A stretch of 35,210 nucleotides of DNA from Candidatus Kapaibacterium sp. (GCA_025450975.1 JANWLI010000055.1:1-35210), one strand, 5' to 3'. Numbered from the stretch's first letter, positions 474-28,429 are shown. Notes: generated by a model from the letters alone, not told the origin. Program-made: numbers and translations.

Positions 474-1151
474 ATGAAGCACTTATCTATCGCTCGCATT
501 CGCTGGGCAACGCTGCTTGTCCTGGCATTCTCGTTCGTGACCTTCGACTCGTATGCTGCGCTTAACATGTATCTGAAGCTCAAAAGCCTTTCCGGCGGCA
601 AGACCTATACCTGCCAGTTGGATAATAATGGCAAGTTCTCATTTGAGAACGTCGAGCCCGGCACGTACGATCTCGTCTTTGTTCTCGATGGGAGCAGAAG
701 CCAGGATGACGGCACCATTCAATCGATCGAGATCAGCAGCTTTTCCTGGGGCGCTTCCAATACTGCAGGAAAGCAGGGAAAGTCGACACCGGTAACGCGA
801 TCGAATATTTCGAATAACCGGACGGGCTCCAACGATGGCGGTGATCCCAGCCCATCAGGAAAGCAAGGAAAGTCAACACCGGTAACACGCTCGAATATTT
901 CGAATAACCGATCGGCGACTGTCGACGCGCAGGGGCCATCCGTTACCTGCAACGGCAAAACTGTCGCCACGGGAGATCTCGATGGCGATGGAATAGCCGA
1001 CGAACTCTCTTCATCGGTGATCTGGTCGCCGAAGAGCAACATTCGTTCAACGTCTCCGGATGTCATTCTTCACGAGATCGTGGTGACGAGTGCCACCACA
1101 GCCGAAGGCAAACTCAAGGCGAGCTGGAATCTCAAAGAGAACGTTAAGTAA
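474..1151 (+). CDS. Exported Hcp-like (T6SS tube fold) hypothetical protein with an internal tandem duplication
   Basis: 225-aa ATG ORF. Residues 1-29 (MKHLSIARIRWATLLVLAFSFVTFDSYA) look like a Sec signal peptide. The mature part starts NMYLKLKSLSGGK, contains IEISSFSWGASN and DVILHEIVVTSATT, and ends KASWNLKENVK. These blocks follow the order of Hcp-family hallmarks. It also has a DNNGKFSFENVEPGTYDLVF hairpin-like insertion and a duplicated GKQGKSTPVTRSNISNNR segment. A strong terminator follows. Confidence 0.6.
   Translation: MKHLSIARIRWATLLVLAFSFVTFDSYAALNMYLKLKSLSGGKTYTCQLDNNGKFSFENVEPGTYDLVFVLDGSRSQDDGTIQSIEISSFSWGASNTAGKQGKSTPVTRSNISNNRTGSNDGGDPSPSGKQGKSTPVTRSNISNNRSATVDAQGPSVTCNGKTVATGDLDGDGIADELSSSVIWSPKSNIRSTSPDVILHEIVVTSATTAEGKLKASWNLKENVK
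766..910 (+). repeat. Two copies of a 55-nt coding repeat with a 90-nt period
   Basis: 766-820 (caggaaagcagggaaagtcgacaccggtaacgcgatcgaatatttcgaataaccg) and 856-910 differ at 4 positions. They encode the duplicated GKQGKSTPVTRSNISNNR peptide. Confidence 0.85.
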
Positions 1152-2393: not shown

Positions 2394-4109
2394 TCAGCCA
2401 TGATGTTCCTTGTGCTCTTCCAACTCGTGCATTAACTCAATGAACTCCGGCATCTCACGGATCGGATCAAGATCAGGATCGACCTTGAAAATTTCGATGT
2501 GGCGGAAGCCGCTTCGGACGCAACGCACGAGCGTCGCCATCCCGCGCTGAGGCTGGTGAGAGAGCAAGTAGGTACATGCAAGGTTGTAGAGCGACGCAGC
2601 GTCGAGCGATTCGATCGCCGAAAGTTTATCAGCCTCGGCAATCGCTTCCGCTTCACGACCTGCCATGGAGTAGATATTTGCCAGGTTTACCATTTCATGG
2701 TAGTGATCGGGATTGAAACGGAGATGGCGTTGAAAGACGGGTATGGCTTTGTCGGCAGCAATTCGTAGTCTTTCGATGATCTCTGGCGAGGTGCCGAGTT
2801 CTTTAATATAGGTAAGATAGTTGAAATGACCTTGTGTGTCATTCTCCCGAAGTCGCACATACTCTTCGCGCGCGTTTACTGCATCCTCGGGTCGTTGGAG
2901 TGCTTGTAAGGCAAAGGCAAGTACGTCATAGCCAACACTGAACGTCGGATCGGTCGCGATCGAACGCTCGGCAAATCGTAGCGCACCTTCATAATCGTCC
3001 CGGGATAGATAGATTCTGCTCATTGCACAAAGATATTGTGGGGTCGGTCCCTCAAGCTCATGTACTTTTTCAGCGGCAGTTTCCGCACGATCGAGCAACG
3101 AAGTACTCTCCCTGTAATAACGATAGAGCACACGATAGGTGAGGGATAAGTCGGCATAAGCATTTGCAAACGTTGGATCGAGTCGCACCGCCTCCTCATA
3201 GAGACTAACCGCGCGTTCATAATCAGGTTTCGTATGCCGACTGTAGTATGCGTCGGCTTTCATCCAAAGCTCATATGCTTCGGCATTTTCTGTGCCACGC
3301 TCGCGGACCTTTTTCTTTTCCGTCGCACTAAGATGCACTTTCAACCCATCGACGATCTTCTGTGTTACTGTTTCCTGCAGATCGAAAATATCGTCCATGA
3401 CACCTTTGTACGAATCCTGCCAGAGATGTTCGTACGTCTCGATATCGATAAGTGAAGCAGCGATTTTTATTCGCTCGCCAAATTTTGTCACCGTTCCCTC
3501 GACAACGTACCGGGTATCATACGTCTGGGCGATTTCGCGGGTACTTTGTTTCACACCTCGTAACTCCATTGAACTCTTGTGATCGAGCACACGGAGCGAT
3601 TTCAGCGTACTAAGCGCGCCGATCAGCTCACCGGTAAGCCCATCGGCAAACCATTCGTTATCTTTTTGCGGAGAAAGGTCGCCGAACGGCAGGATGATGA
3701 GAGACTTACGAAGGTCGACTGACGACTTGCGGGCTACACCGCGCTGATGTGAGCGGATGATGGCATCATAGTCGGTGATCGCCACGTGCTGTATCCCGGC
3801 GATCTGATATTCAAATGAAGAGGGAAGAACGACTGGGGCAATCCGCACCGGCAGAATACGCTTCCCGCGTTCCGAAGCAAGGGAAAGTTCTTTCAACACA
3901 TTTGCGGACTCCACCGACGATGGAGATAAGAGTAAGAGAAACGTCGAGCATCCTCTGATCCCCTCAACGATCTCCGTCGCCCATTGCTCGGCGCCATCGA
4001 TGCCATGGCGATCGAGCCAAACGTTGAAATCATCGGCCTCGAGACGCTCGGCAAGCGCAAGGGCCTGTTCGGAATCCCGGCGCGAGTAGGAGATGAAGAT
4101 ATCAGCCAT
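2394..4109 (-). CDS. TIR domain protein with a central alpha/beta module and a C-terminal TPR-like array
   Basis: 571 aa. The N-terminus MADIFISYSRRD...NVWLD...FLLLLSPSSVESANVLKELSLA is a canonical bacterial TIR signature, including the conserved Glu (E74). The middle part (LIILPFGDLSPQKDNEWFADGLTGELIGALS...RYVVEGTV...IKIAASLID) is the module that usually precedes TPRs in cyclase/BTAD/CadC-type proteins. The last ~300 aa are TPR-like helical repeats. No transmembrane segment seen. Confidence 0.8.
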   Translation of the reverse strand: MADIFISYSRRDSEQALALAERLEADDFNVWLDRHGIDGAEQWATEIVEGIRGCSTFLLLLSPSSVESANVLKELSLASERGKRILPVRIAPVVLPSSFEYQIAGIQHVAITDYDAIIRSHQRGVARKSSVDLRKSLIILPFGDLSPQKDNEWFADGLTGELIGALSTLKSLRVLDHKSSMELRGVKQSTREIAQTYDTRYVVEGTVTKFGERIKIAASLIDIETYEHLWQDSYKGVMDDIFDLQETVTQKIVDGLKVHLSATEKKKVRERGTENAEAYELWMKADAYYSRHTKPDYERAVSLYEEAVRLDPTFANAYADLSLTYRVLYRYYRESTSLLDRAETAAEKVHELEGPTPQYLCAMSRIYLSRDDYEGALRFAERSIATDPTFSVGYDVLAFALQALQRPEDAVNAREEYVRLRENDTQGHFNYLTYIKELGTSPEIIERLRIAADKAIPVFQRHLRFNPDHYHEMVNLANIYSMAGREAEAIAEADKLSAIESLDAASLYNLACTYLLSHQPQRGMATLVRCVRSGFRHIEIFKVDPDLDPIREMPEFIELMHELEEHKEHHG

Positions 4110-6042: not shown

Positions 6043-7740
6043 TTAGTGCGAAACGATAAATCGCTGTGCAGAACTCGAAGCGGTACCGGCTTGACGTATG
6101 GTATACACCCCATCCAAGAATTTACCGACATCGATCTGGCTATGGATGGTAGTGATGACACCGGACCAGCAGAGTCGTCCGGCAACATCGGTGATCTCAA
6201 GCATTGCCGGAGTGCCGGACAGCCCGTATACATAGAGCGTACTACCGGCAGGATTTGGGTAGACGCCGAAGGTTGCCGTATGCAGTGCTGGGTTGCCCGG
6301 TACGCTTGCGTGTTGTTCGTTCAAGGCAGCGTGCGCATTGATCCTCCCATAGCCATGGTACTTGTCCCATCCTGCAACATCTTCGGAGGCAAGGCCGACC
6401 ATGTCTTCTGCAGTGCGTGTGATGATCGCCGAGAGCGAATCGGCGGTGCGAGTCGGATCTTGCGCTAGCAGAAGCGATGCAAGCCCGCTGACGTATGCCG
6501 TCGACAGCGATGTCCCCCAGGAGAAGTAGTCGGGATGAGAATCGGATACATAGATGAGTCCATAAATAAAATTACCGGGAGCAACGACCTTAATATGCGG
6601 GCCGAAATTACTCCCGCCGCTTCCGCTATACGACGGGGAGCCAGCTGATCCGGTACGATGATCGTTCTCATTTGTCGAGCCAACTGCAAATGCATGGTCA
6701 CATGCCGCTGGGTAATAGGACGTGGAAGTATTGCTATTTGCCATTCCACACACGACAAGGACACCGGCGGCATGTGCGGCAGTGATGGCCTCCTGCATTG
6801 CCTGGTTCCTCACTGTTCCGGCGATAGAGATATTAATAATACGAGCCTTATTATCCACTGCGTAGTTGATCGCTTCGGCTACGCGCGAGAACGGCGTTCC
6901 ACCGTTCCTGTCGAGCACTTTGCAGATCATCAACTTGCATTTCCAATCGACACCTGCGTAGAGACCGCCATCGCCGCCATTGGCTGCAAGGACTCCCGTG
7001 ACGAATGTTCCATGTCCGTTGTCATCAATTGGCAGATTATCCTTATCGGCAAAATCCCATCCGACAACATCGTTCAGATATCCATTCGAATCATCATCGA
7101 TGCCGTTACCCGGTATTTCATCTGTATTGCGCCAGATCCTTCCTGTAAACGAAGGATGGTCGAACTTCAGCCCTGCATCGATGACGGCAACGATTACCGA
7201 AGAATCGCCGGTAGTGAGCTGCCAGGCTTCGGGCATATCTATATCGGCGTCGTAGGTGGCAGTTGCATTAAACGTACCATCGTTGTCAAACGCCCATTGC
7301 CTCTGAAAGTATTGGACATTCGGTGCAACGCCCTGAGGTAATTGTGCCGGAGAGGACAACGCATGTGCAAGCGCATCCTCTTCTACATATTCAAAAAGAT
7401 CGGTCTCAGTATACTCGGCAATCGCTCGTTCGATATCAACAGGATTCCGGAAGGTAAGCGAATAGGTTGTGCGGTAGTTTGCAGAGGTTGAATTGTGCGA
7501 ACTGATTTCGTGAATATCTGCAACACCGTATTCTTCACTCAAGATTTCAAACCGTGTAGCAGGCATCTTTATGGATGGTACGGACCCAACACCGACGGGA
7601 TTTGTGGAGTATGGCCGTTTGAATTTTACGATCAGGCGATCGCCCATCGCTCTGTCTTGTAATACCTGGGCAGAAAGCTGAGCGCCTAAGCATACAATTC
7701 CAGCAACGAAAAGAATTGAAACTGTGCGGAGTGAGTTCAT
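6043..7740 (-). CDS. Subtilisin-like serine protease (peptidase S8) with a T9SS C-terminal sorting domain
   Basis: Catalytic triad contexts are VAVIDAGL (Asp), DDNGHGTFVTG (His) and WGTSLSTAYVSGLASLL (Ser). The tail GVYPNPAGSTLYVYGL...GVYTIRQ...RFIVSH looks like a T9SS C-terminal sorting domain. Track ORF extends to 7803. The ATG at 7740 gives the signal peptide MNSLRTVSILFVAGIVCLGAQLSAQ. Confidence 0.85.
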   Translation of the reverse strand: MNSLRTVSILFVAGIVCLGAQLSAQVLQDRAMGDRLIVKFKRPYSTNPVGVGSVPSIKMPATRFEILSEEYGVADIHEISSHNSTSANYRTTYSLTFRNPVDIERAIAEYTETDLFEYVEEDALAHALSSPAQLPQGVAPNVQYFQRQWAFDNDGTFNATATYDADIDMPEAWQLTTGDSSVIVAVIDAGLKFDHPSFTGRIWRNTDEIPGNGIDDDSNGYLNDVVGWDFADKDNLPIDDNGHGTFVTGVLAANGGDGGLYAGVDWKCKLMICKVLDRNGGTPFSRVAEAINYAVDNKARIINISIAGTVRNQAMQEAITAAHAAGVLVVCGMANSNTSTSYYPAACDHAFAVGSTNENDHRTGSAGSPSYSGSGGSNFGPHIKVVAPGNFIYGLIYVSDSHPDYFSWGTSLSTAYVSGLASLLLAQDPTRTADSLSAIITRTAEDMVGLASEDVAGWDKYHGYGRINAHAALNEQHASVPGNPALHTATFGVYPNPAGSTLYVYGLSGTPAMLEITDVAGRLCWSGVITTIHSQIDVGKFLDGVYTIRQAGTASSSAQRFIVSH

Positions 7741-7844
7741 AGAGCCAAATCTACTGAATAAAAAGTAACTTGATCTAAAACAAGACTGTTCCTTGGCGTA
7801 CATAGTTGGAGGTATAGGCCATGGGGATGGGTTTAGGGATTAGG

Positions 7845-8094: not shown

Positions 8095-8715
8095 TTACCC
8101 GAGAAACTTATTCCTGGCCTGCTGCAGCTCTTTGAGCAGATACTTGATATTCGGATCTTCCGACTTTTCGGCAAGCGGAAAATAATGCTTCGTCGTTTCC
8201 ATCACATACTTGATGGGGTTACGCTTGACGTTAAACTCCAGACATCGGAACGTGTCAAGGCGGTCGCAGAGCTTAAGCATCTTTGCATCGTCGGTGGCGC
8301 CGGTTAGGCGTTCGACATACTCTTTTTCGATGATCTCACGCATCTCGCCCGAGGCTTTAATGTCTTTCGTCAACATCGAGACGAGGTAGCTTGTGTAGGC
8401 GCCGAAGTTGTACTCAAGGATCTCGGGTGTCAGGACCTGCGAATCTTCGAGGACGTCGTGCAGCAATGCTGCGCAGATGATCGAGATATCGCTGATACCG
8501 AGTTCGTCGACGATGATCTTGGCGACGCGGCTTGGATGCCAGAAATACGGCGTACCATCCGGCCGTTTCTGGAATTCGTGGACGCTTTCGGCCATATCGT
8601 AGGCGTCAAGTGTCACGTTCACATCAAGGGCAGTAAGGTTGCGTTCACGGAGCATCCGCTCCATCGCAGCGCGTTCGAGATACGTCTCGTTATATTTAAA
8701 GACTGGTAATTCCAA
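8095..8715 (-). CDS. HD-domain (p)ppGpp hydrolase-like protein (RelA/SpoT-type small alarmone hydrolase)
   Basis: 206 aa. The blocks H..RVAKIIVDELG...ICAALLHDVLEDS and AKMLKLCDRLDTFRCL match the HD/ED and KLADRLHNMR-type motifs of the SpoT/Mesh1 hydrolase domain. No synthetase domain. The annotated start is TTG, and an ATG (Met18) is an alternative. Confidence 0.75.
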   Translation of the reverse strand: MELPVFKYNETYLERAAMERMLRERNLTALDVNVTLDAYDMAESVHEFQKRPDGTPYFWHPSRVAKIIVDELGISDISIICAALLHDVLEDSQVLTPEILEYNFGAYTSYLVSMLTKDIKASGEMREIIEKEYVERLTGATDDAKMLKLCDRLDTFRCLEFNVKRNPIKYVMETTKHYFPLAEKSEDPNIKYLLKELQQARNKFLG

Positions 8716-8787: not shown

Positions 8788-10947
8788 TTAGCGGCCGACC
8801 GAGGGAGAGTAACTAAACCTGATATCCTCGCAATACATTTCAATCTTGATGCGGCGCTGCCCATCTGCGCCTGCGGGAAGCTGCGTGAGCTTACGAGGAC
8901 AGATCTTTGAAAGATCAAGCCTAAAGAGCTCTGCCGTGCCATCGTTAGCGAGGTAGATGAGCGATCCGGACTTTTCGAGCTGCGGCGTACAGCCTCCTGC
9001 GAGCCTGAAACTTTCAAAGTAATCGAGCCAGGGCTGCGCATCGGTTTGGGATAAAGTGAACGTCAGATTCGGATGATCGATCTTGCCGGGTTCCTTGAAA
9101 TAGTCCCTGCTATTATCGGCTGTTTGCTGTGTCGTCTTCTGCTTGAAGACGATCGACTCGACTTTGCTGACTTTCGCAGTGGGCAGACCGGCGATCTCGA
9201 GCTTGAAGTTCGCAGGCGACCATGTCTTCTGTGCAGTTGCCGGCGGTTCGATCTTTTTATTTGGCTCCGGCCTGACTTCGTGCATCGCTGCCGGCTGAAC
9301 CTTGATCGTCATGTATGCCGGATCCTTCGAGGCAGCATCGAGTGCGGGCATTTGGATCTCGGAAATGAGTGCAGCCTGGAATTCGCGGCGTGCACGCTCG
9401 TGAAAATTGAAGTCTTCCATGATGATCGCGCCACTCTTGCGCAAGTACTCTTTATTCCACGAGCTCTCGATCCAGTCATAGATCGCCGGCGTCATGCTCA
9501 GGCCCAATTGCATGGCGAAATCGCCTGCAACGCTTGGCGCTGTAGCCGCGCCTTGAAAACTCTGTAGATATCCTGCAGTTTTTCCGTCGATCTCTATGAG
9601 AAATTTGCCGGATACATAGCCGCGCCGGTTCGCATCGGAACTCCAGGTCGTTTCGGATTGCGACGCGCCTTCATCCCATTGGCGGCCGCCAATCCCACTT
9701 CCAGCGCTATCTTCGGATGACGGGCCCATAGCGATCGTGATCTCGTGATGGCCGAACTGTCCGTTCTTTTCGGCAACAAGTTTCAGAAAGTATGATTTAT
9801 TCGGTTTAGCTGTCCCCGGCGAAAGCCAGAGATTCGACGGGATCGGCTCTTTCTTGAGCGAGATGTAGCGTGGTGTGCCGACTTCGCGCAGATACCAATT
9901 GTAGTTGAACGGGCCACCGGTTGCCGAGCGTGCGCGGCCGGTGAATTCGTGCGGGGCGTCCGGATCGAGTGGCATCGTCTGCGGCGCAGTGATACGGACT
10001 TCGATCGGTGTCTTGACGACGATCGGTTCGCCGAGGCGATTGATATCGGGAATACCGTCGCCATCGATGTCGATATTGCCTTCGCCACAATCATCGGAAA
10101 CCGTAAACGAGAACGGTGTTGCCCAGCCATCCTGATAGCTTACCAACGGCCGTCCTTGAAAATCAAGTGCGCGGACGCTCCAGGCATAGCGCTTCCCTAC
10201 TTCGGGATAAAAATATTCGACGGGCCAGATCAGCTCCGTGAGTCCCATCAGTTCGCGCTCAAATACCGGGCGTGCACTGCGAAGCGCCGTCGATGGATTC
10301 TGTCCGGCGAGAACTTCGAAGACTGAGAGTCGGTAACGAACGGGCTCCATCGGAGCCGGAACCACGGGAGTCCAGCGGAACATCGGGCGCGGATTGCCGG
10401 AGTTCATCTCGATGACATTGTTCTGCCCAAGTTTGCACAGGACTGCCTGATCGGCAGGCAGGATCAGATATGGAGTCGTATAGGAAACGATCGTAACGCA
10501 CACCGGTGGCAAGAGTGCCAGTTGCTCGAGTGTCGTAGCATCAATGATCTTTATCGTGATGCAGATCGTGCCGTCGGGAATGCGCCCCGATCGCTTCGTG
10601 CTTTCGTCGAGGTTATCTTCGAAGTGCATGGCAGACATCGGTACGATATTCTCACCGTAGAAGGTGCGTATGCCAGGGTTAATCGTTTGCGGCTGCAACT
10701 TGTCGGCATTCGTGTAAGCGACAAGTTTGTTGTTATGCGAGATCTCGGCTAATATCTTCACATCGGTCGGAACCGATGGTGCATTCGTGACGATCAGCGT
10801 TACCGTATTAACACGCGATGACCAGTCCGAGAGATACGGCGACGGGTTCGGCGAAAAGATCAGCTGAGCAGACCATTGCGAGTAAGCAAACTGCGCTGCA
10901 AACGTGCAGACAAGGAAAATAGACTGTAGAAGGCGCTTTACGATCAT
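8788..10947 (-). CDS. Secreted 719-aa protein with two C-terminal tandem contractile-tail tube (Pvc1/Afp1/T4 gp19-like) domains
   Basis: Signal peptide MIVKRLLQSIFLVCTFAAQFAYSQ. The N-terminal ~440 aa are unassigned and contain an IDIDGDGIPD calcium-site-like motif. Residues ~443-556 read KFLIEIDGKTAGYLQSFQG...IYDWIESS...RKSGAIIMEDFNFHERARREFQAALISEIQMPALDAASKDPAYMTIKVQ. Residues ~578-715 read NFKLEIAGLPTAKVSKVESIVFKQK...EPGKIDHPNLTFTLSQTDAQPWLDYFESF...EKSGSLIYLANDGTAELFRLDLSKICPRKLT...IKIEMYCEDIRFSY. Both follow the tail-tube pattern block by block. Confidence 0.7.
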   Translation of the reverse strand: MIVKRLLQSIFLVCTFAAQFAYSQWSAQLIFSPNPSPYLSDWSSRVNTVTLIVTNAPSVPTDVKILAEISHNNKLVAYTNADKLQPQTINPGIRTFYGENIVPMSAMHFEDNLDESTKRSGRIPDGTICITIKIIDATTLEQLALLPPVCVTIVSYTTPYLILPADQAVLCKLGQNNVIEMNSGNPRPMFRWTPVVPAPMEPVRYRLSVFEVLAGQNPSTALRSARPVFERELMGLTELIWPVEYFYPEVGKRYAWSVRALDFQGRPLVSYQDGWATPFSFTVSDDCGEGNIDIDGDGIPDINRLGEPIVVKTPIEVRITAPQTMPLDPDAPHEFTGRARSATGGPFNYNWYLREVGTPRYISLKKEPIPSNLWLSPGTAKPNKSYFLKLVAEKNGQFGHHEITIAMGPSSEDSAGSGIGGRQWDEGASQSETTWSSDANRRGYVSGKFLIEIDGKTAGYLQSFQGAATAPSVAGDFAMQLGLSMTPAIYDWIESSWNKEYLRKSGAIIMEDFNFHERARREFQAALISEIQMPALDAASKDPAYMTIKVQPAAMHEVRPEPNKKIEPPATAQKTWSPANFKLEIAGLPTAKVSKVESIVFKQKTTQQTADNSRDYFKEPGKIDHPNLTFTLSQTDAQPWLDYFESFRLAGGCTPQLEKSGSLIYLANDGTAELFRLDLSKICPRKLTQLPAGADGQRRIKIEMYCEDIRFSYSPSVGR

Positions 10948-11110
10948 TATTGCCTTTCTTGGGCGTCCTGCGAATATACCACATCTTCATTAGAAGGACG
11001 TTGGCTTGGTGGCCTTTGTGACAAATGGGGCAAATATCGGTTCTCACGAAAACCTGTGGGGGCTGCAACGTGTTGTATTATCGTATTATTATCCAGGGTT
11101 GTTGTTGGTT

Positions 11111-12505
11111 ATGTATTTACGGTTCGTCGGATTCATCTTACTCTTCATTTCTGCTATTCCTCTCTTTGCTCAGGAGGATAGCCTGACTGTCATTGGCACG
11201 AAGGACGTTATTACCGGCCTCGATACTCCCTGGGAGATCCTTTGGGGACCGGATAATCATATATGGATGACAGAGCGCTATGGGCGTATCAGCCGTGTCA
11301 ACCCGGAAACAGGAGAACTTACGCCGCTCATCACCATGCCGGAAGTCTATGAGACGGCCGAGGCCGGACTTATGGGAATGACACTGCATCCGCATTTTCC
11401 CGATCCGCCTTATCTCTACACTGCCTATACCGGCAAGGTTGACGATTCAACTTACGGTGTTTACATTGTTCGCTTCACTTATGCGCGGGATACGCTGGTC
11501 GACAAGCAGATCCTGATCGATCCACGACGAATTATCGGTGGCACGATTCATGACGGCTGCCGCCTTCTGATCGATAGCAACGACATGACGATGTACGTCA
11601 CGACCGGCGATGGCGAGGATTATTGGTATCCGCAGACCGATTCCATTTATAATGGCAAGGTGCTCCGCATGAACCTCGATGGCTCGGTGCCGGACGACAA
11701 TCCCATTCCCGGCAGTCATGTATGGTCTAAAGGCCATCGGAATGCGCAAGGTCTTGCCTACGGACCGCATCACTTGATGTATACTACGATGCACGGCACC
11801 TTTGAGGAAGATGAGATCAACATCATTGTCAAAGACGGAAATTACGGTTGGCCGAATATCAACGGTAAAGCTGATTTTGGTGATGAAGTTGCGTTCGCTA
11901 GTGACTCATCGGCCATTGACCCGATCTATACCTGGACTCCGACGATCGCACCGGGCGGATGTCTGTACTACGACCACGAGGAATTCCCTCAACTCCGCAA
12001 TTCCCTGCTGATCGCCATCCTCAAAGGCGATGGCGACGGTAACAGCTATATGATAGCTGCGCATCTCGACAGTGCGGGGACTGCCGTGACCGATACCGTG
12101 CGCTACTTCTACGGAGAATACGGCAGGTTTCGGGATGTCGCTATCGCTCCCGATGGAAGAGTCTTCATCTCGACAAGCAATAGAGATTCAAAGGGATTTC
12201 CAAGACAGGACGACGATCGTATTCTCATGCTCTACGCTGCGCCCCAGGTATCGGTCGCAGTTGATGAGCAGTCCACGGTTTCGATCTCACCAAATCCAAT
12301 GACTGGTGCTGCTTCGTTCGTGACGCTGCCGCACGAATTTGTCGGCGCTTCGTATGATATCGTCGATGCCTTGGGGCGTATCGTTCGGACCGGGACCCTG
12401 GAGTTCACCCAATCGCGTATCGAGCGTGGCACGCTTGCCGAAGGCGTTTATATCCTCCGCGTGCAGGGCGATGTTCCCTGCTCTACGCGGTTCGTAGTTA
12501 ACTGA
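11111..12505 (+). CDS. PQQ-dependent sugar (glucose/sorbosone) dehydrogenase family protein with a T9SS C-terminal sorting domain
   Basis: GLDTPWEILWGPDNHIWMTER.GRI..V, GLMGMTLHP.F, SKGHRNAQGLAYGP and EDEINIIVKDGNYGWP are typical of soluble GSDH beta-propellers. The tail ISPNPMTGAASFVTL...GVYILRVQG...RFVVN is T9SS-sorting-domain-like. Track ORF starts at 11006. The ATG at 11111 gives the leader MYLRFVGFILLFISAIPLFAQ. Its stop overlaps the convergent stop of the next gene by 8 nt. Confidence 0.8.
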   Translation: MYLRFVGFILLFISAIPLFAQEDSLTVIGTKDVITGLDTPWEILWGPDNHIWMTERYGRISRVNPETGELTPLITMPEVYETAEAGLMGMTLHPHFPDPPYLYTAYTGKVDDSTYGVYIVRFTYARDTLVDKQILIDPRRIIGGTIHDGCRLLIDSNDMTMYVTTGDGEDYWYPQTDSIYNGKVLRMNLDGSVPDDNPIPGSHVWSKGHRNAQGLAYGPHHLMYTTMHGTFEEDEINIIVKDGNYGWPNINGKADFGDEVAFASDSSAIDPIYTWTPTIAPGGCLYYDHEEFPQLRNSLLIAILKGDGDGNSYMIAAHLDSAGTAVTDTVRYFYGEYGRFRDVAIAPDGRVFISTSNRDSKGFPRQDDDRILMLYAAPQVSVAVDEQSTVSISPNPMTGAASFVTLPHEFVGASYDIVDALGRIVRTGTLEFTQSRIERGTLAEGVYILRVQGDVPCSTRFVVN

Positions 12506-14219
12506 GTTTCTTGAGGATCGCTTCGAACTCCGGGAGGTTGCGCAGTGGATCGAGGTCGGGATCGGTGCGAATCAACTTCAGGTTGCCAAAGCCCTTGTCG
12601 ACAGCAAGAGCGATCGCCTTAATTCCGTCGTCTAGTTTTTTATGCCGAATGAGCATACAGCCGACATTGTAAAGACTAAGTCCATCGCTGTGAGAAGAAG
12701 CTAAGAGTCTGTTGACGATATTCAGAGCTTTTTCTGTTTCGTGAAGGTCGAAGTAAAAGCTCGCAAGCCCTGCCAGGAGGAATTGATCGTCGGGCTGAAG
12801 TTTGCGTCTGTGCTCGAAGAGCGGCAAGGCGCGCTCGGCAACGTACGTTTGTCCTTGTGTGTCGCCGGTTTTCGAATACTGCACATACAGATTCCAGAAA
12901 CCGAAGATATTTTCCGGATTGACTTCCGTGCACTTCTGATACCACTCAATAGCTTGGATCGTCTTTCCTGCCTGGGAGTAAACAAACCCCATGCTCAAGT
13001 AACCCCGGATGATATTGGGTTCGAGCTCGATAATTTTTTGGGAGGCATCGATCGCTGCATCGAAATTGCCGCGGATCGTCTCGAGCGTTGCAAGGGCATG
13101 ATAGGCAACTGTGATCGTATCATTGATCGCAAGCGACCTATCGATCAGTGCTGCGACTTCGTCAAGCCACTCTTTGCGCTGTTCGTAAACACGATAGAGG
13201 ACGAGCAATGCCGACGCCTTGATCGCCATAGCAGCAGCAAAGCCGGGATCAATAGTCAGCGCTTCGTCGAGCAACTCAAGGGCATGCGTAATCGCTTGCT
13301 TTGTGCTCTGTTCGATGAAGCTTCCGGCACGCATATAAAATTCATAGGCTTCGGCGCTTTCGGTCAGACGCGCGGTTAGCTTCTCTTTATCTATCAGCGA
13401 GAGTGTGACTTTCAGCGCATCGATGGTCTTTCGTGCAACGGCTTCCTGGATGTCAAAGATATCATCCATGACGCCGCGATGCGCCTCATTCCAGATATAC
13501 TCGGTCGAGCGCGAGTCGTAGAGAGCGACAGTGATCTTGATCTGCTCGCCGTGCTTGCGAACTGCACCTTCGATGCAGTAGCGGACTTTCAGCGCTTGTG
13601 CAATTGCCTGCAGGCTTCCCTTGTAGCCTTTGTAGCCCATGGCAGTGCGGCGATCGGTGACGCGAAGCGACTGGATGCCGGAGAGTGCGTTGATCAGTTC
13701 GTCGGCAAGGCCGTCGGCGAACCACTCGTTGTCCTTGCCTGCTGAGAGATCTTCGAATGGGAGAACGGACAGCGAGACGCGTTCGTCTTTCGGTGCAGGT
13801 TGCTGAGCGGGTTGTGGCGCAACGGGCGTCGAGCCCGCGACGGCGCCGATTCGATCAAGGCCTCGAAGAATACCGTCGAAGTCGGCGTACTTGACTCGCT
13901 GCAGACCCGCCAGTTGGTAGCGAAGGTCGGCAGTGAGGTCGACGTGTTCGAGGTCGACGGGGATGATGGTCTTGCGCGACTCCGATGCGAGTGAGACTTC
14001 TTTGACAACATTATGCGATGCGACGGAGCTTTCGGAGAGCAGAAGGAGCACTACCTTGCACGTATCGATAGCGGTGACGATCTCGCGGGACCAGCTCGTG
14101 GCCGCTTCGATGCCTTGCGTATCGATCCAGATCGAACATCCGGATGCTCGCAAGCGCTCTGCTAAGGAGAGCGCTTGTTCTTTATCGCGGCGTGAATATG
14201 ATATGAAGACGTCTGACAC
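12498..14219 (-). CDS. TIR domain protein with a central alpha/beta module and a C-terminal TPR-like array (paralog of 2394..4109)
   Basis: 573 aa with a GTG start. (M)SDVFISYSRRDKEQALSLAERL...SIWID...VLLLLSESSVASHNVVKEVSLA is a TIR domain with E74 conserved. LSVLPFEDLSAGKDNEWFADGLADELINALS...RYCIEGAV...IKITVALYD is the central module, followed by TPR-like repeats. By manual count 49 of the first 80 residues are identical to the 2394..4109 protein. Confidence 0.8.
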   Translation of the reverse strand: MSDVFISYSRRDKEQALSLAERLRASGCSIWIDTQGIEAATSWSREIVTAIDTCKVVLLLLSESSVASHNVVKEVSLASESRKTIIPVDLEHVDLTADLRYQLAGLQRVKYADFDGILRGLDRIGAVAGSTPVAPQPAQQPAPKDERVSLSVLPFEDLSAGKDNEWFADGLADELINALSGIQSLRVTDRRTAMGYKGYKGSLQAIAQALKVRYCIEGAVRKHGEQIKITVALYDSRSTEYIWNEAHRGVMDDIFDIQEAVARKTIDALKVTLSLIDKEKLTARLTESAEAYEFYMRAGSFIEQSTKQAITHALELLDEALTIDPGFAAAMAIKASALLVLYRVYEQRKEWLDEVAALIDRSLAINDTITVAYHALATLETIRGNFDAAIDASQKIIELEPNIIRGYLSMGFVYSQAGKTIQAIEWYQKCTEVNPENIFGFWNLYVQYSKTGDTQGQTYVAERALPLFEHRRKLQPDDQFLLAGLASFYFDLHETEKALNIVNRLLASSHSDGLSLYNVGCMLIRHKKLDDGIKAIALAVDKGFGNLKLIRTDPDLDPLRNLPEFEAILKKLS

Positions 14220-16883: not shown

Positions 16884-16947
16884 CCGGCTCAAAGTTACGA
16901 TAAATCTATTCTAAATGGTATCTTTGTACATTACAGAACACATCCTC

Positions 16948-18342
16948 ATGAAGTACCTAGTCATCCTACTCATTCTCGCAGGTGCGGCCCTTCCGGTCCT
17001 TGCTCAGGAAGTACAAGTGCCGTTCGATTCTGCCGGTAAGATCGAAGTGATTACGCGTGAGCTGGAAAAAAGCTATCGGCTGTTTCCGGAAATTACAAAT
17101 TTTCGCGATGCGATCCTGATTATGCGGCCCGATAGTACGTATCACATTGAGATCACGTACATCGAAGATGGGCAGATCAAGCGCATCAAACAGGATAAGA
17201 GCCAGGCGCAGATCGCCGTGTTGCGTCAGCGACTAACCGAACCGACATTCGACACACCTGCGCCGGCGAAACCTGGTGCGGGTCTCGATCAAACAGCGCG
17301 AACAAAGTTCATTACAGCTACGACGCTGCTGGCAACCTTTGCTTATGGGCCGCTCATTATCAGCTCACTCGATGGTGCCGGGGGCGGAGCTATTGCAGGA
17401 TTGGAATTGATCATTGGCGGCGCAGGATTTTTGCTTCCCTTGCTTGCGACCGAAGACCGCTCCGTCACACAAGCGGAAGCCTCGCTTGCTATCGGCGGCG
17501 CTGTTCTCGGCATTGGCCATGGCATGCTGCTCTCCTCACTGATCACCAATGGCGATGTCGGCAACGAATTCGGTATCATTGCCACTACGATGAGTGTTGG
17601 CGAAATGATCGCAGGCTATAACATCGCCCACGCAAATAATTTTAACGCCGGCAAATCCGACATTATCGTAACATACGGCCTTTATGGTATGGGGCAAGGT
17701 GCGCTGCTGCCTATAGTCGCTGCGGGGGATATTGACAATATTTCGAGCTCATGGGTGACCGGCTCGGCACTTGCCTTTTCAGCGCTTGGCTATTTCGCCG
17801 GCAATGCACTTTCAAATGCAACTCGCTATACGCGCGGCGATGCAACCGTTGCATCGACGACAGGCGGATTTGCGACACTGTGTATGCTTGGATTAGTGCT
17901 TCCGGCCCTGGAGAACTCAGGGGACGAAGGACTCCAGATCGCTGCTGCCTCGGCAATGGCAGGAAATATTGCCGGACTCTGGCTCGGTCATTATTTGGCC
18001 GAGAAAAAAGATCTTTCGGAGGACGAAGGTAATTACATCTCGCTCGGCACGTTTGCCGGATGTCTGATCGGTTCGGGCGTCGGGTTGATCCTAGCAACGG
18101 ATTTGGACAACATTACCGATATCTACCAATTCACGATCCCCGCGGTGCTTGGCACTGCCGGTGGCTTTGCGATCTCCTACCATGTCTTTGGCAAAGGTTC
18201 TGGCAGAGACGAGGGGTCCAATTGGGATGTGAACTTCAATCCCGGCGCGCTGATCGGCGGCTTAACTGAACAGCCACGATTGACCGCAGATGGAAGACCG
18301 CCACGGGTTTCTCCGGCGCTATCGGTGCAGTATCAGTGGTAA
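16948..18342 (+). CDS. Hypothetical polytopic membrane protein (Gly/Ala-rich transmembrane segments)
   Basis: Track ORF starts at 16915. The ATG at 16948 gives the leader MKYLVILLILAGAALPVLAQ. A ~110-aa soluble N-terminal region is followed by many Gly/Ala-rich hydrophobic segments (GGGAIAGLELIIGGAGFLLPLLA, LAIGGAVLGIGHGMLLSSLI and others). A strong terminator follows. Confidence 0.55.
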   Translation: MKYLVILLILAGAALPVLAQEVQVPFDSAGKIEVITRELEKSYRLFPEITNFRDAILIMRPDSTYHIEITYIEDGQIKRIKQDKSQAQIAVLRQRLTEPTFDTPAPAKPGAGLDQTARTKFITATTLLATFAYGPLIISSLDGAGGGAIAGLELIIGGAGFLLPLLATEDRSVTQAEASLAIGGAVLGIGHGMLLSSLITNGDVGNEFGIIATTMSVGEMIAGYNIAHANNFNAGKSDIIVTYGLYGMGQGALLPIVAAGDIDNISSSWVTGSALAFSALGYFAGNALSNATRYTRGDATVASTTGGFATLCMLGLVLPALENSGDEGLQIAAASAMAGNIAGLWLGHYLAEKKDLSEDEGNYISLGTFAGCLIGSGVGLILATDLDNITDIYQFTIPAVLGTAGGFAISYHVFGKGSGRDEGSNWDVNFNPGALIGGLTEQPRLTADGRPPRVSPALSVQYQW

Positions 18343-18444: not shown

Positions 18445-20229
<1,785 letters not shown>

Positions 20230-20238
<9 letters not shown>

Positions 20239-24044: not shown

Positions 24045-24069
24045 AACCCGGCCTATGCCGGGTTTTTTT
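24045..24069 (+). terminator. Rho-independent terminator (shared convergent junction)
   Basis: aacccggc ctat gccgggtt followed by tttttt. Overlaps the stop codon (24068-24070) of the convergent giant gene. Confidence 0.75.
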
Positions 24070-27000
24070 ATTGGCGAATCAGGTGCAGCACAGAGGTGCC
24101 ACGCATGGTCTCGATCCGAAGCATGTAGGCGCCGCTTGCGATATGCTCAAGGGATAGCGTTTGCGGCCTTCCCTTTCCGAGCGTGCATTGTCTGGTAAGA
24201 ACGACCTTGCCAAAGACATCGAAAAGTTGTATCTGGGCCTCTACATCATCATCCGAAGAGATGATTACTTTGTTATCGGCAGGATTCGGATGAATAGTAA
24301 ACTTGGGGCGCTCGCCGAGATGCATGAACCGGGAGATGATCTCTGCGCCGCATCCCGCAGGTGGTGTGATGCTACTTATGCCGACAACGGGCATACTATA
24401 CCTGCAGAATGAATTGACCCATGCCGAGTCGAAGGTAACAAGACGATCGCCGACAGAGTCAACGAAAACATTGAAGTACGCATAGCCGAGCAGTGGATTT
24501 CCCTGTGTATACTGCCCCTTGATCTTTGTACGACCTTTCCATTGGCTGTTTGGGATGTCGAGCGAAGTACCGGTTTCGCTGAACGAGCCAATGTAGTCGA
24601 GCTGCGGATCGTAGGTAATGACCAGTTCGACCATCTCATCGGTGACGAGGCCGCGGACGGTGATCGGCAATCGTACCGTGCCGCCAATTGTATCGGCAAT
24701 AACATTTGTCGATTCGAACGAGAGCGGCAACAGTGGATGCGAGCTACCAAGGAGACGTATCGTATCCCGTTGGCCATTCGAGCCTTCGACGATCAATATA
24801 GCATCATGCTCATGGCTAAGATCTGTTGAAAATGCAACTTCGATCAGATCGGGAGCTACGCGCACGATGCGATACCGAGCACTATCCGGACCGACAATGC
24901 GGAGTTGATCTAGTGAGGGGAATACACAACCGGTACGTGCGATCGAGATACTACGGAAAATTGTGTCGCACCGAACGGTGTCTAGCCGGAAGAGCTCGGT
25001 TGTTGAATACTGCAGCGTTCCGGCCGGGATATCTGCAGCACCGAAGAGCTCGATCGTATCGCGTTGACCATTTGTCCCTTCGATAACGATGCGTCCGGAA
25101 TGCTCGCCGCCTCTTGTCGAAGTGAAGGAAACGAAGATCGAATCGCTTGTCACATTTTCAAGCGTATAGCTTGCACTATCCGGACCGGAAATATGCAGTG
25201 AGTCGATCTGCGGCAAGATGCATCCTAGTCTCTTAATACTGATGCTGCGAAAAACCGTATCTGAACAATCGATCGTATCGGTACGGAAAAGATCGTGCGT
25301 GGAGTATTCGAGCGAGCCGGGTGGAAATGTAGCTTCACCAAACAAGTCTATTGTATCGATCTGGCCGTTCGTCGCTTCAACGATGAGATATCCTTCATGC
25401 GAGCGTAGATGCGTGCCGGCAAACGAGATATGAATTGAATCTCCGGACGAACCTATCACCTGATAACTTGCACTGTCCGGACCGATGATCTTTATCATGC
25501 TGATGTCCGGAGGAATACAGCCAACTCGTTTAAGCACGATAGCACGATATAGCGTATCATCACAATCAACTGTGTCGGTACCGAAGAGCTCTCGTGGTGT
25601 ATAGGAAATACTATCCGGAGGCAGAACTGCCGTTCCTGATAGCAGGATCGTATCGCGCTGACCGTTCGTGCCTTCGACAATGATAAATCCCTGATGATCG
25701 CGCTCTGTATTCGATGAGAAGGAAATTCGAATCGAATCAGCGTTGTATCCTGCGAGATGGTAGTTGCTACTATCTGAGCCACCGATCGTAATCGATTTAA
25801 TCCCCGGCAACACACAACCCAAACGCTGGAGCGTGATCGTCCGAAGGAGTGTGTCGTTACATCCGACTGTATCGGCTTGAAATAAATTGCGTGTCGAGTA
25901 CGTGATCGTATCCGGTGGAACGATCGCATTGCCAAAGAGCCTGATCGTATCTCGTTGGACATTCGAACCTTCAATAATGACAAAGCCAGTGTGGCTGCCC
26001 AGCTTATCAGTTGAAAATGCGATGCTGATCGTGTCGTTCGATGCGCCGATGAGCTTGTAGCGTGCGCTGTCCGGGCCGGTGATCTTAATCGATTTTACCG
26101 TCGGCCGCAGACAACCAAGACGAGACACGACAACTGTCCGAACGAGTGTGTCATCACAGTGCAGAGTATCTGTCTTGAATAACTCTTGTGGGGAGTATCG
26201 GAGAGTGTCCGGCTGAACTCTCGACGTACCGAAGAGCTGGATCGTATCGAGCTGACCGTCCGAAGCCTGAATCACCATAAATCCCCGATGCGACCGATTA
26301 AGATCGGAAGCAAATGCGATAGTGATCGAGTCATTATCGTACGCGATAGTATCGTAGCGATACTTATCAGTGCCTAATATCCAGATCTTCAGGATGCCGG
26401 GAGGATTACAAGAAGGCTTTGCAATGTGAATAGTACGCTTAACCGTATCATTGCAGCCCATCGTATCGGTACGAAACAACTCTTGCGCATCGTAGCTGAG
26501 TGTCTTTGGCGTATTGATAAAGCTTCCGCCGGCATTCGTCGTTTTCCAGACACTTCCCTGGTCGGAAAGTGTGAAGACGATATTGTCATTAATGCAGGCG
26601 ATCGCGCGTGCATCGTACTTGCTTGGCGGACCTGCTTGTTGTGTCCAGGTGATTCCCTGATCGGTAGATCGAAGTACGGTATTACTCAGCGTGCCGGCAT
26701 AGAGTGTTCTTTGTGTTCCGGTGATCGAGCCGGAAATATAGGGGATTGTCCGTCCGAACATGGTCTGCCACGTAACACCATCATCGGTTGATTTATAGAT
26801 CTCCGAGATACCATTATCCGGTACGGCCTTATCCTCATTTGCAAGGTAGAGGACGTCGGGAGTGCATGGATCGGCAAAGATCGAAAAGCAATCGCCGTCT
26901 ACAAGACCCGAACGATGGACCCAGTTCAGGCCATCGTCATTGGACACGGCCACCCATCCGTCGGATAGACCGGGACTTTGAAAACTACCACCGAAAACAT

Positions 27001-27496
27001 AGAGCTTGCCGTGAGCGCGCACCATCGAGAGACCAAAACTCATAGGGTTGAGGCCGGCAGAGATCCACGTTAACCCACCGTCAAAGCTGGTATAGACTCT
27101 GCTGAAGCCGGTGAGAATATGGATGATGTTCGATTGGCTGCCAAAAGCAACCGAGTAGTTTTGTCGATTGCTGATCTGATTCCATGTGAAGCCGCCATTA
27201 ACCGTTTTGAAAACCCGGTCGAATGTGGTCAGCAAGCCATTCATCTTGTCAAAGAAGACGATCTCACATACTTGCTCGCCGGGAAATGCGGCGCGCTGGA
27301 TCCACGTCCTTCCGGAATCGTGTGAGGAAAACAGATCTTCGGCTCCGGCCCAGAGCACGCCATAACTGAAATGCATCGTCCCGCCGAAGGTGTAGGTATT
27401 CTGAATCAGATTTGGGACAGCGTTCGACCACTGGCTTCGTCCGGGGGAAGCGCAAATTGCGAAAAATAACAGGACCCAAATGTAACGCAGTTTCAT
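24068..27496 (-). CDS. 1142-aa secreted multidomain protein: BNR/Asp-box propeller, six 99-aa Cys-containing repeats, cohesin-like module and T9SS sorting domain
   Basis: Leader MKLRYIWVLLFFAICASPGRSQ. Asp-boxes are SHDSGRTW, TVNGGFTW, SFDGGLTW, SNDDGLNW, STDDGVTW and STDQGITW. Residues 329-921 hold six tandem repeats (consensus PPD(T/S)l.YS..ELF.TDT..C.DT..R.i...R.GC..P.i.si.I.GPDSA.Y.l......SI.isF......H.G.iIvEGtNGQRDTI.LfG). Residues ~922-1030 are cohesin-like (VRLPITVRGLV...VELVITYDPQLDYIG). The tail IHPNPADNKVIISS...GAYMLRIET...LHLIRQ is T9SS-sorting-domain-like. Confidence 0.75.
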   Translation of the reverse strand: MKLRYIWVLLFFAICASPGRSQWSNAVPNLIQNTYTFGGTMHFSYGVLWAGAEDLFSSHDSGRTWIQRAAFPGEQVCEIVFFDKMNGLLTTFDRVFKTVNGGFTWNQISNRQNYSVAFGSQSNIIHILTGFSRVYTSFDGGLTWISAGLNPMSFGLSMVRAHGKLYVFGGSFQSPGLSDGWVAVSNDDGLNWVHRSGLVDGDCFSIFADPCTPDVLYLANEDKAVPDNGISEIYKSTDDGVTWQTMFGRTIPYISGSITGTQRTLYAGTLSNTVLRSTDQGITWTQQAGPPSKYDARAIACINDNIVFTLSDQGSVWKTTNAGGSFINTPKTLSYDAQELFRTDTMGCNDTVKRTIHIAKPSCNPPGILKIWILGTDKYRYDTIAYDNDSITIAFASDLNRSHRGFMVIQASDGQLDTIQLFGTSRVQPDTLRYSPQELFKTDTLHCDDTLVRTVVVSRLGCLRPTVKSIKITGPDSARYKLIGASNDTISIAFSTDKLGSHTGFVIIEGSNVQRDTIRLFGNAIVPPDTITYSTRNLFQADTVGCNDTLLRTITLQRLGCVLPGIKSITIGGSDSSNYHLAGYNADSIRISFSSNTERDHQGFIIVEGTNGQRDTILLSGTAVLPPDSISYTPRELFGTDTVDCDDTLYRAIVLKRVGCIPPDISMIKIIGPDSASYQVIGSSGDSIHISFAGTHLRSHEGYLIVEATNGQIDTIDLFGEATFPPGSLEYSTHDLFRTDTIDCSDTVFRSISIKRLGCILPQIDSLHISGPDSASYTLENVTSDSIFVSFTSTRGGEHSGRIVIEGTNGQRDTIELFGAADIPAGTLQYSTTELFRLDTVRCDTIFRSISIARTGCVFPSLDQLRIVGPDSARYRIVRVAPDLIEVAFSTDLSHEHDAILIVEGSNGQRDTIRLLGSSHPLLPLSFESTNVIADTIGGTVRLPITVRGLVTDEMVELVITYDPQLDYIGSFSETGTSLDIPNSQWKGRTKIKGQYTQGNPLLGYAYFNVFVDSVGDRLVTFDSAWVNSFCRYSMPVVGISSITPPAGCGAEIISRFMHLGERPKFTIHPNPADNKVIISSDDDVEAQIQLFDVFGKVVLTRQCTLGKGRPQTLSLEHIASGAYMLRIETMRGTSVLHLIRQ
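24734..26512 (-). repeat. Six tandem ~297-nt coding repeats
   Basis: Protein-level period of 99 aa (repeat boundaries PD/PPD at residues 429, 527, 626, 725 and 824). The copies are diverged, so similarity is visible mainly at protein level. Confidence 0.7.
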
Positions 27497-27652: not shown

Positions 27653-28429
27653 ATGCGCTACATTTTACTCCTTACCCTCCTTCCCCTGGCAGCCACGGCT
27701 CAGCTGAAGATCGACTCGATCCGGATCACGCAGGAATTGATGCCATATAGTGGTACCGACGGCACCGGACTGTCGTCCTGGAGCAGGACGATCATTCCGA
27801 TAAATGACACCGTCGTCTTCGATGAGTCCAATGGGATCATGCATTACTCCACGTCCACATCGATGGGAAGTGTATCCTTCGCGCATGACAGCAATGCGCA
27901 AACGGTTCACTCCTTTACACTTACTACTAGTACCGGCCATCCCGATGATATTCAGGGTTACTCCGGAATGAACTGGGGATTTTTAAAAGACACCATCGTT
28001 CGTGAAGGAAGGGATTTTCGAATTTTCCTCTACAGTGAAGAGCTTAAGCCTGATAATTTCGGCTTTTCCGGAATAGACAAAGTGCGTATCGGCCCTGGTC
28101 AATATACAGAAAGCACCTCCTATAGCACGCTTCCGATAGCAGGTTCATGGGTTGAGGTTACCATCTTCGGATCTGTCCCGCTTGATGTCGCAATCCCAGA
28201 ACGTCCTTTGTTTGCAGTCTATCCGAATCCGGCATCGCAGATCATTATCATTGCTGGGATATTAGAGACCCAGCCGATCAGGATATTCGATCTTACCGGC
28301 CGTGAGTGCGATCTTCCAAGAATAATAGCAGCTGAGAACGAGACAAGCCTTGATATTTCACAGTTGCGAAATGGTATCTACTGGTTGCAGGCCGGAGTAC
28401 AATCGCAGAAACTTGTCGTGGCGAAGTAA
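27653..28429 (+). CDS. Hypothetical secreted protein with a T9SS C-terminal sorting domain
   Basis: Leader MRYILLLTLLPLAATAQ. The tail AVYPNPASQIIIIAG...IRIFDLTGRE...GIYWLQAGVQSQKLVVAK is T9SS-sorting-domain-like. Confidence 0.6.
   Translation: MRYILLLTLLPLAATAQLKIDSIRITQELMPYSGTDGTGLSSWSRTIIPINDTVVFDESNGIMHYSTSTSMGSVSFAHDSNAQTVHSFTLTTSTGHPDDIQGYSGMNWGFLKDTIVREGRDFRIFLYSEELKPDNFGFSGIDKVRIGPGQYTESTSYSTLPIAGSWVEVTIFGSVPLDVAIPERPLFAVYPNPASQIIIIAGILETQPIRIFDLTGRECDLPRIIAAENETSLDISQLRNGIYWLQAGVQSQKLVVAK

Follow-up and report, generated by a model that had tools for sequence, protein, structure and literature searches.

The window analysed here, an entire contig of 35210 nt from Candidatus Kapaibacterium sp. 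(GCA_025450975.1, JANWLI010000055.1:1-35210), carries on its minus strand a gene for a 719-aa protein that combines a putative leader for the general secretory (Sec) pathway, three predicted beta-sandwich domains and, at its C-terminus, two tandem tube domains (BD1 and BD2; Table 1). The region singled out in the initial annotation (8803-9621) maps exactly to residues 443-715 of this open reading frame (ORF). As had been proposed from the sequence, both C-terminal domains are genuine tube domains of the type found in contractile tails and contractile injection systems (CISs; Cis1/Afp1-type), as borne out by Pfam matches, structure prediction, Foldseek comparisons and profile searches.

The Pfam family PF06841 (Phage_T4_gp19) matched the protein with an E value of 3.8e-12 (score 46.6 bits; curated cutoff 28.2 bits) in two stretches, the best of which covered residues 579-689, and the BD1 copy was weakly matched at residues 478-551 by NCBIfam TIGR02241 and the CIS1/CIS5 families. 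Hidden Markov models (HMMs) of the tandem-tube family described below matched the whole protein far more strongly (BD1, E = 1.2e-42; BD2, E = 5.6e-50, or 2.3e-50 over residues 574-715), but the underlying alignments include the window sequence, so these values are partly circular. The independent evidence for the tube assignment is therefore that from Pfam and from structure. An AlphaFold2 model of residues 430-719, based on 84 sequences, had a mean predicted local distance difference test (pLDDT) score of 89.4 and a predicted template-modelling (pTM) score of 0.86 and contained two tube-fold domains, a beta-sandwich with a flanking helix and a long beta-hairpin that is intact in BD2 and truncated in BD1; BD1 and BD2 are predicted with high confidence to be packed side by side in one chain. 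In Foldseek searches of the PDB, single-domain matches were obtained with Afp1/Afp5, Pvc1, AlgoCIS, the Anabaena and Streptomyces CIS tubes, T4 gp19 and Hcp, and the template-modelling (TM) scores of BD2 against Afp1, AlgoCIS and the Anabaena and Streptomyces CIS tubes were 0.74-0.80. The full-length matches were the T5 tail tip (7qg9_G, 5e-9), the major tail protein of SH-Ab15497 (8xan_A, 7e-9, TM 0.61/0.58), the P74-26 protein (8ed0_A, TM 0.60) and T5 pb6; the match to these duplicated tail tubes is approximate, with 7-12% identity in the structural alignments and a root-mean-square deviation of 6-10 Å. A search of BFVD was concordant, with matches to a PhiCbK-like tail subunit and to other major tail proteins. 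At the sequence level, the full protein gave only chance matches to DnaK among PDB chains, and CIS tubes were reached with the family profile (Streptomyces CIS tube, 7e-11; Afp1, 1.7e-3; Pvc1, 2.2e-3). The block-by-block resemblance to Pvc1 noted initially is thus real, being recovered by both the profile and the single-domain Foldseek match. The family motifs PALDAASKD..., QKxW.P.NF and EMYCE were confirmed in the window protein, and the strongly conserved PALDAASKDPAY is retained.

The first tube copy had been described as the shorter one, and it is so because about 20 residues, corresponding to the tip of the long beta2-beta3 hairpin, are missing. The BD1 HMM matched in two pieces (residues 444-473 and 476-561), and HMM positions 32-52 were skipped. 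Most members of the family have the sequence AEVxxExxGxxxxxxKHIGxVKYxD at this site; it is absent from the window protein and from the homologues P0003 and P0017, and P0002 has an identical short sequence.

The N-terminal part begins with the leader MIVKRLLQSIFLVCTFAAQFAYS, followed by Q at the predicted cleavage site. It has the features expected of a Sec-type signal peptide, as initially stated: K4 and R5, a 16-residue hydrophobic core at positions 6-21 (mean Kyte-Doolittle value 1.74) and an A-x-S site before Q. No further membrane-like segment was found in the mature part of the protein. The region of about 440 aa that had been left unassigned indeed has no match in Pfam or NCBIfam, module A (see below) included, but some 420 residues of it are resolved by AlphaFold2 and Foldseek into three domains of the FN3/Ig type, in an arrangement resembling tandem FN3/Ig/macroglobulin-type arrays. 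Such arrays are typical of extracytoplasmic proteins and are taken here as support for export; from these features, the protein would be soluble and exported through Sec. The first beta-sandwich domain is also found in many large exported proteins. The second is the most conserved part (80% identity with P0003 and 56% with P0005, versus only 33-44% for the tube domains), and the position of the third is occupied by HYDIN/ASH-type Ig domains in relatives. The linker leading to BD1 is only 26% identical to those of P0003 and P0005. The C-terminal sorting domain of the type IX secretion system (T9SS; Por_Secre_tail) was not matched by Pfam in the protein.

When 1.84 billion cluster representatives were searched exhaustively, 3,595 hits were obtained and two independent modules emerged: module A (residues ~1-290) and the tandem-tube module (residues ~436-716). 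The top 156 representatives comprised 80 with module A alone, 63 with the tandem tube alone and 12 with both, several of the last being giant proteins. The tandem-tube module is mostly found as a stand-alone protein of 290-370 aa, with 30-46% identity over both domains, and residues 444-715 of the window protein align end to end with 83 members (30-42% identity over ~275 residues). Where they are named, stand-alone members are annotated as "phage tail protein" (NCBI records of metagenome-assembled genomes [MAGs] of Verrucomicrobiota, Symbiobacteriaceae and Actinomycetota). About one third of 118 stand-alone members are leaderless (MADRSYVAGNF...), and the remainder largely have Sec-type or twin-arginine (Tat)-type leaders. 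A scan of species-representative genomes identified 55 loci, in Myxococcota, Symbiobacteriaceae, Armatimonadota, Verrucomicrobiota, Acidobacteriota, Gemmatimonadota, Chloroflexota, Actinomycetota, Nitrospirota, Bacteroidota and Candidatus Kapaibacterium, so that the family spans at least 10 phyla. Fimbriimonas and Akkermansiaceae are also among the groups with relatives. The tandem tube is therefore not a peculiarity of one gene, as it had first appeared, but belongs to a large pre-existing family, the leaderless Myxococcota members of which are ordinary components of CIS operons.

The clustering of neighbouring genes placed a leaderless tandem tube inside a genuine CIS operon at 13 Myxococcota loci. 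The gene order is a Pvc16-type cap, a sheath, the tandem tube (here ~310 aa), a 128-aa protein, a second sheath, a gp19-type tube, a protein of ~1,100 aa, CIS_tube and a GPD hub, and this order indicates that the tandem tube fills the Afp1/Cis1 main-tube slot. Since leaderless members keep that slot in Myxococcota, the family probably originated as a duplicated and fused CIS inner tube. The inner tube of these Myxococcota CISs is predicted to be trimeric and pseudo-hexameric, built from a fused-dimer subunit. A sheath gene was found at none of the loci outside these 13. Those loci include 14 members with Sec-type leaders, 11 with canonical [S/T/D]RRxF[LIM] Tat leaders and 9 leaderless orphans, in addition to the fusions, and on three long contigs (230-395 kb) examined separately the members were likewise orphans. 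Searches for a phage origin of the tandem tube found nothing: tblastn against 50,697 phage records (INPHARED) gave no hit, IMG/VR contained no relative, and no PHROG matched.

Tandem tubes joined behind module A are seen in Kapabacteria and other Bacteroidota. This fusion is present in five independent assemblies: the window, a Logan locus (L061, 86% identity), P0003 from JGI, and L049/P0005 and L055, both from NCBI MAGs of Candidatus Kapaibacterium. The junction at residues ~430-445, flagged initially as a possible misassembly, is thus sound. Module A consists of the leader and two beta-sandwich domains with the motif SPxPSPYxSDW; it is preceded by a signal peptide in every case, and across its homologues A23 is nearly invariant and Q24, just after the predicted cleavage site, is invariant. 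Many large exported proteins in genomes resembling those of Bacteroidota and Gemmatimonadota begin with module A and continue into unrelated C-termini (P0006-P0010, P0275-P0294). In larger relatives (P0012, P0015, P0126, P0154, P0011/L046), the domains recur in the order module A, Ig, CIS_tube (Cis7-like), gp19 (Cis5-like), BD1 and BD2; P0011 also has a second BD1-BD2 pair and DUF4214. The tube paralogues strung together in these giants are separate genes of the Myxococcota CIS operon. The CIS_tube HMM was built without long sequences, because inclusion of the giant L046 protein among the seeds gave a false match to the window protein through module A. Leaderless multidomain proteins also embed the tandem tube (P0079, P0091, P0126 and P0131). 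P0079 (2774 aa) combines subtilase, tandem-tube, amidase_2, peptidoglycan-binding and PLD domains, and proteins of its kind look, from their domain content, like tube-fused CIS effectors. At two Bacteroidota/Kapaibacterium loci, a PD40 beta-propeller gene of ~390 aa lies convergent to and directly downstream of the tube-fusion gene (L046:12371-13543 and L055:10929-12116, both on the minus strand); it is not present in the window.

Table 1. Positions of the features of the tube-fusion gene and its neighbour in the window, and loci of related CIS operons and giant proteins
Feature	Coordinates	Strand	Evidence
Whole tube-fusion gene, 719 aa	8788..10947	(-)	ORF; full-length AlphaFold2 model, pLDDT 86.3
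Putative Sec-type signal peptide, residues 1-23, predicted cleavage AYS/Q	10879..10947	(-)	Charge, hydrophobic core; AlphaFold2 helix 2-20
Beta-sandwich domain 1 of module A, residues 25-153	10489..10875	(-)	AlphaFold2; Foldseek FN3/Ig/MG tandem arrays
Beta-sandwich domain 2 of module A, residues 161-283	10099..10467	(-)	AlphaFold2; most conserved part of the protein
Third FN3/Ig-like beta-sandwich domain, residues 316-407	9727..10002	(-)	AlphaFold2 strands; Foldseek FN3 arrays
Disordered Ser/Gly/Glu-rich linker, residues 415-443	9619..9705	(-)	pLDDT <50
Tube domain 1 (BD1), residues 444-561, beta2-beta3 hairpin truncated	9265..9618	(-)	BD1 HMM; AlphaFold2 strands 448-558
Site of ~20-residue hairpin deletion in BD1 (FQGAATAPSVAGDF, residues 464-477)	9517..9558	(-)	Alignment columns 121-140; HMM gap
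Tube domain 2 (BD2), residues 574-715, complete fold with hairpin	8803..9228	(-)	PF06841; BD2 HMM; AlphaFold2 strands 581-713
HD_4 (RelA/SpoT-type HD hydrolase) gene, directly downstream of the tube gene	8095..8715	(-)	Pfam PF13328
Myxococcota CIS loci with a leaderless tandem tube	L013:8076-18914; L008, L011, L012, L014, L017, L018, L020, L022, L026, L034, L035, L052		
Giant tube-concatenating proteins, most with leaders	P0011/L046:6446-12304; P0012, P0015, P0126, P0154, P0131, P0034, P0013		

Comparison with the 86% identical L061 orthologue gave an overall ratio of nonsynonymous to synonymous substitution rates (dN/dS) of 0.14, indicating purifying selection. By part, the leader had a value of 0.09, the beta-sandwich domains 0.05-0.12 (domain 2, 0.05), BD1 0.14 and BD2 0.20. 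The conservation profiles of exported and CIS-embedded members of the family were correlated (r = 0.74), and the consensus was the same in 132 of the 182 columns conserved in CIS members. This common pattern suggests that exported members are still under comparable structural constraints, among which assembly interfaces may plausibly be counted.

The contig is chromosomal, with genes for a carbamoyl-phosphate synthase, QueA, RNase HII, an ECF sigma/anti-sigma pair and several T9SS cargo proteins. Searches with Pfam, PHROGs and HMMs made from the Myxococcota CIS loci detected no sheath, baseplate, spike, cap or phage gene on the contig, in agreement with the initial annotation, and no tail locus lies elsewhere on it. 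The HD_4 gene is adjacent to the fusion gene at four of the five fusion loci, but the HD_4 proteins of the window and L049 are 84% identical, whereas the tube proteins are only 36-39% identical, and the L055 fusion locus has no HD_4 gene; the adjacency therefore looks like lineage synteny, and a functional operon of the two genes is improbable. The 84% identity of the HD_4 neighbour also places the window close to the Kapabacteria. Sigma-70-like promoter and terminator signals were not informative for such an operon. A TAnnTTTG-like motif (TATTTTTG) lies directly upstream of the HD_4 start and would point to a separate promoter for this gene, should promoters of the Bacteroidota type be in use in the organism. 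The protein encoded at 474-1151 (+), regarded in the initial annotation as an exported Hcp-like protein, had no TssD/Hcp hit and no tube HMM match; it gave only sub-threshold matches to CarboxypepD_reg, fn3_3, SdrD_B and FG-GAP, and this assignment is withdrawn.

Other genes of the window can be noted in passing. Two paralogous proteins with TIR_2 and TPR domains (571 and 573 aa) flank the region, at 2394-4109 (-) and 12498-14219 (-). At least four proteins match T9SS sorting domains: a subtilase (6043-7803), a glucose/sorbosone dehydrogenase (11006-12505), a 1,142-aa sortilin-like protein (24068-27496) and a 258-aa protein (27653-28429), the first two just under the Pfam cutoff. These domains mark the organism as belonging to the Bacteroidota-related group. 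The carbamoyl-phosphate synthase large-chain-like ORF at 18445-20238 (+) encodes 597 aa, about half of a normal CarB (the second ATP-grasp and the MGS domain), and the 475-aa ORF upstream of it (16915-18342) has no Pfam match.

Known Cis1, Afp1 and Pvc1 subunits are leaderless single-domain proteins of ~150 aa, encoded beside sheath and baseplate genes, and they form hexamers inside the sheath in the cytoplasm. The window protein shares with these CIS inner tubes (PF06841) sequence homology and fold (TM 0.74-0.80 per domain), and its Myxococcota kin occupy the main-tube slot, but it differs from them in that its two tube domains are fused and form the C-terminal end of a chain of 719 aa with a Sec-type leader, in its one truncated hairpin (BD1) and in the lack of any CIS gene on its contig. 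The arrangement of two tube subdomains in one chain is similar to that of T5 pb6, the tail-tube protein of P74-26 and PhiCbK-like major tail proteins (TM ~0.6). These proteins form trimeric pseudo-hexameric rings, and T5 pb6 additionally has an Ig-like decoration domain (PMC5717097). In these siphophage proteins, however, there is no detectable sequence relationship to the window protein, and no homologue was found in phage collections, so the duplication was probably independent. The window protein also differs in its decoration, which is N-terminal and comprises three domains, and in its Sec-type leader, in place of cytoplasmic assembly around a tape-measure protein. With Hcp (TssD) it shares the tube fold, Bacteroides and Flavobacterium Hcp being matched by Foldseek, and Hcp fusions are a precedent for extra domains, but neither PF05638 nor PF17642 hit the protein at E <= 10. 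Hcp has no leader and exits the cell by way of a type VI secretion system (T6SS) rather than Sec, and its extensions are C-terminal toxins, in contrast to the N-terminal FN3 array and Sec-type leader found here. A further counterpart is the uncharacterised family of "phage tail proteins" of ~300-360 aa, many of which are orphans with Sec or Tat leaders; the alignment with these is end to end, and the window protein differs by the addition of module A and a third beta-sandwich domain and by the loss of the BD1 hairpin.

These comparisons lead us to a reading that we regard as evenly poised between true and false, in which a tube module of CIS origin has been recruited to assemble outside the cytoplasm, probably into trimeric pseudo-hexameric rings. 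The chain would first be exported through its Sec leader, as indicated by the features of the N-terminal sequence. Its two tube domains would lie side by side, in the manner of T5 pb6 and the tail-tube protein of P74-26, and three chains would then close a pseudo-hexameric ring outside the cytoplasm, with the FN3 arrays pointing outward, much as Ig domains decorate the tail tubes of siphophages. In pb6 and other tube proteins, tubes no longer form once the long loops are deleted or substituted (PMC5717097), and in view of this precedent the lost BD1 hairpin may imply rings or short stacks rather than long tubes. Such rings or short stacks would act as a scaffold or binding platform in the cell envelope or at the surface, and not as a projectile. 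In many lineages, the family would have become detached from sheath and baseplate genes and acquired Sec or Tat leaders. The suggestion in the initial annotation of an extracytoplasmic role for repurposed tube modules thus gains comparative support from the 14 Sec and 11 Tat leaders, none of them beside a sheath gene, but the specific roles named there (pore, adhesin or scaffold) are still conjectural.

Several points weigh against this reading. Ring formation outside the cytoplasm is a step that we infer, and the leader was called by rules and not by SignalP. A CIS may be encoded elsewhere in the genome, the check for CIS genes having been confined to one 35-kb contig, and no conserved partner gene points to a pathway. 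The neighbour-joining tree of the tandem module is star-like, so that neither the monophyly of the exported forms nor the direction and number of transitions can be read from it. Finally, the window protein is divergent within its family: it retains 79 of the 147 positions conserved in exported members, its lineage lacks the BD1 hairpin, and divergence has been faster in its tube domains than in its FN3 domains.

This divergence also counts for the strongest rival explanation, which holds that the tube fold is here a plain, stable beta-sandwich module for binding or adhesion, present as a monomer or a non-ring oligomer in the periplasm or at the surface. We consider it a serious candidate, albeit a rather unlikely one. 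The deletion of the BD1 hairpin counts in its favour, since loss of such a loop abolishes tube formation by pb6 (PMC5717097), as do the limited retention of family-conserved positions and the status of the tube domains as the fastest-evolving folded parts of the protein. Module A elsewhere carries unrelated C-terminal passengers (DUF4214, SusE-like), which suggests that it is a general display scaffold. However, several kinds of tube domain are found fused to module A again and again, and in a fixed order, which is difficult to explain if these domains are generic filler. Moreover, the predicted side-by-side layout is that of ring-forming duplicated tubes (TM ~0.6 over both domains), both tube domains are under purifying selection, and highly conserved motifs such as PALDAASKDPAY have been kept.

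The rooting of the family in CIS operons and the existence of leaderless effector-like relatives such as P0079 could also be taken to mean that the protein is an off-locus component or cargo of a CIS or T6SS, an "evolved tube" comparable to Hcp-toxin fusions, the leader of which is not used for export. The view afforded by a single 35-kb contig leaves room for such a system elsewhere in the genome. We nevertheless find this improbable, because the leader shows the canonical features of Sec and purifying selection has conserved it, and the Gln following the cleavage site is invariant in all module-A proteins. Assembly of CIS particles takes place in the cytoplasm, where a subunit that has been cleaved and exported would be out of reach. 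Three FN3 domains per chain would also be hard to accommodate between tube and sheath or in the lumen, and no leader-bearing homologue adjoins a sheath gene, the 11 canonical Tat-type members included.

A function in defence, as an envelope decoy or blocker binding the tips of incoming phage tails or CIS/T6SS tubes, appears highly improbable. It would fit the rapid divergence of the tube module next to a housekeeping-like gene that retains 84% identity, and TIR-TPR genes lie within a few kilobases on both sides; one orphan locus (L004) adjoins TIR, SLATT and LSDAT genes. The dN/dS values are well below 1, though, and the clustering of neighbourhoods at 58 loci revealed no recurrent defence gene beside members of the family. 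The window protein matched no PADLOC defence family at E <= 1e-3, so that nothing links it to known anti-phage systems, and the TIR-TPR proteins hit defence models only through their generic TIR domain. As for an artefact, either a chimeric assembly of an exported FN3 protein with a tube gene or a decaying pseudogene, the metagenome-type contig and the low-complexity linker at the junction (residues 415-443) might raise the suspicion, but it can hardly be entertained in view of the intact reading frame, a dN/dS of 0.14 over all domains and the same architecture in five independent assemblies, this recurrence and purifying selection effectively refuting it.

The co-option of a CIS tube module for assembly outside the cytoplasm may be part of a wider pattern. 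In at least 10 phyla, CIS-derived tubes may repeatedly have been turned into Sec- or Tat-exported proteins that build sheath-less rings or tubes by self-assembly, either in the periplasm or at the surface; the Bacteroidota and Kapabacteria versions would be mounted on an FN3-array module, and some giants would have their tube domains ordered as initiator-, adaptor- and main-tube types, as in the layers of real tails. In this full form the proposal is possible, if doubtful. To our knowledge, all characterised tail-tube proteins, whether from phage tails, tailocins, extracellular CISs or T6SSs, fold and assemble in the cytoplasm within a multi-gene machine. In the full-text literature, most subscription journals excepted, we found no account of tail-tube proteins exported by Sec or Tat, of CISs whose main tube is a fused dimer or of giant exported proteins with multiple tubes. 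As far as we could find, what is new here is the occurrence of a known fold and superfamily in a compartment, an architecture and a genomic setting that had not been described.

The blanket annotation of these proteins as "phage tail protein" would mislead surveys of prophages and CISs. The CIS operons with a fused-dimer main tube and the giant exported proteins concatenating tube paralogues likewise appear to be undescribed. The broad set of leader-bearing tube proteins without sheath or baseplate partners implies a second life of the tube module outside the cytoplasm, and, if rings or tubes do form there, they would constitute a new phage-derived structure of the cell envelope and a naturally secreted, self-assembling protein nanotube.

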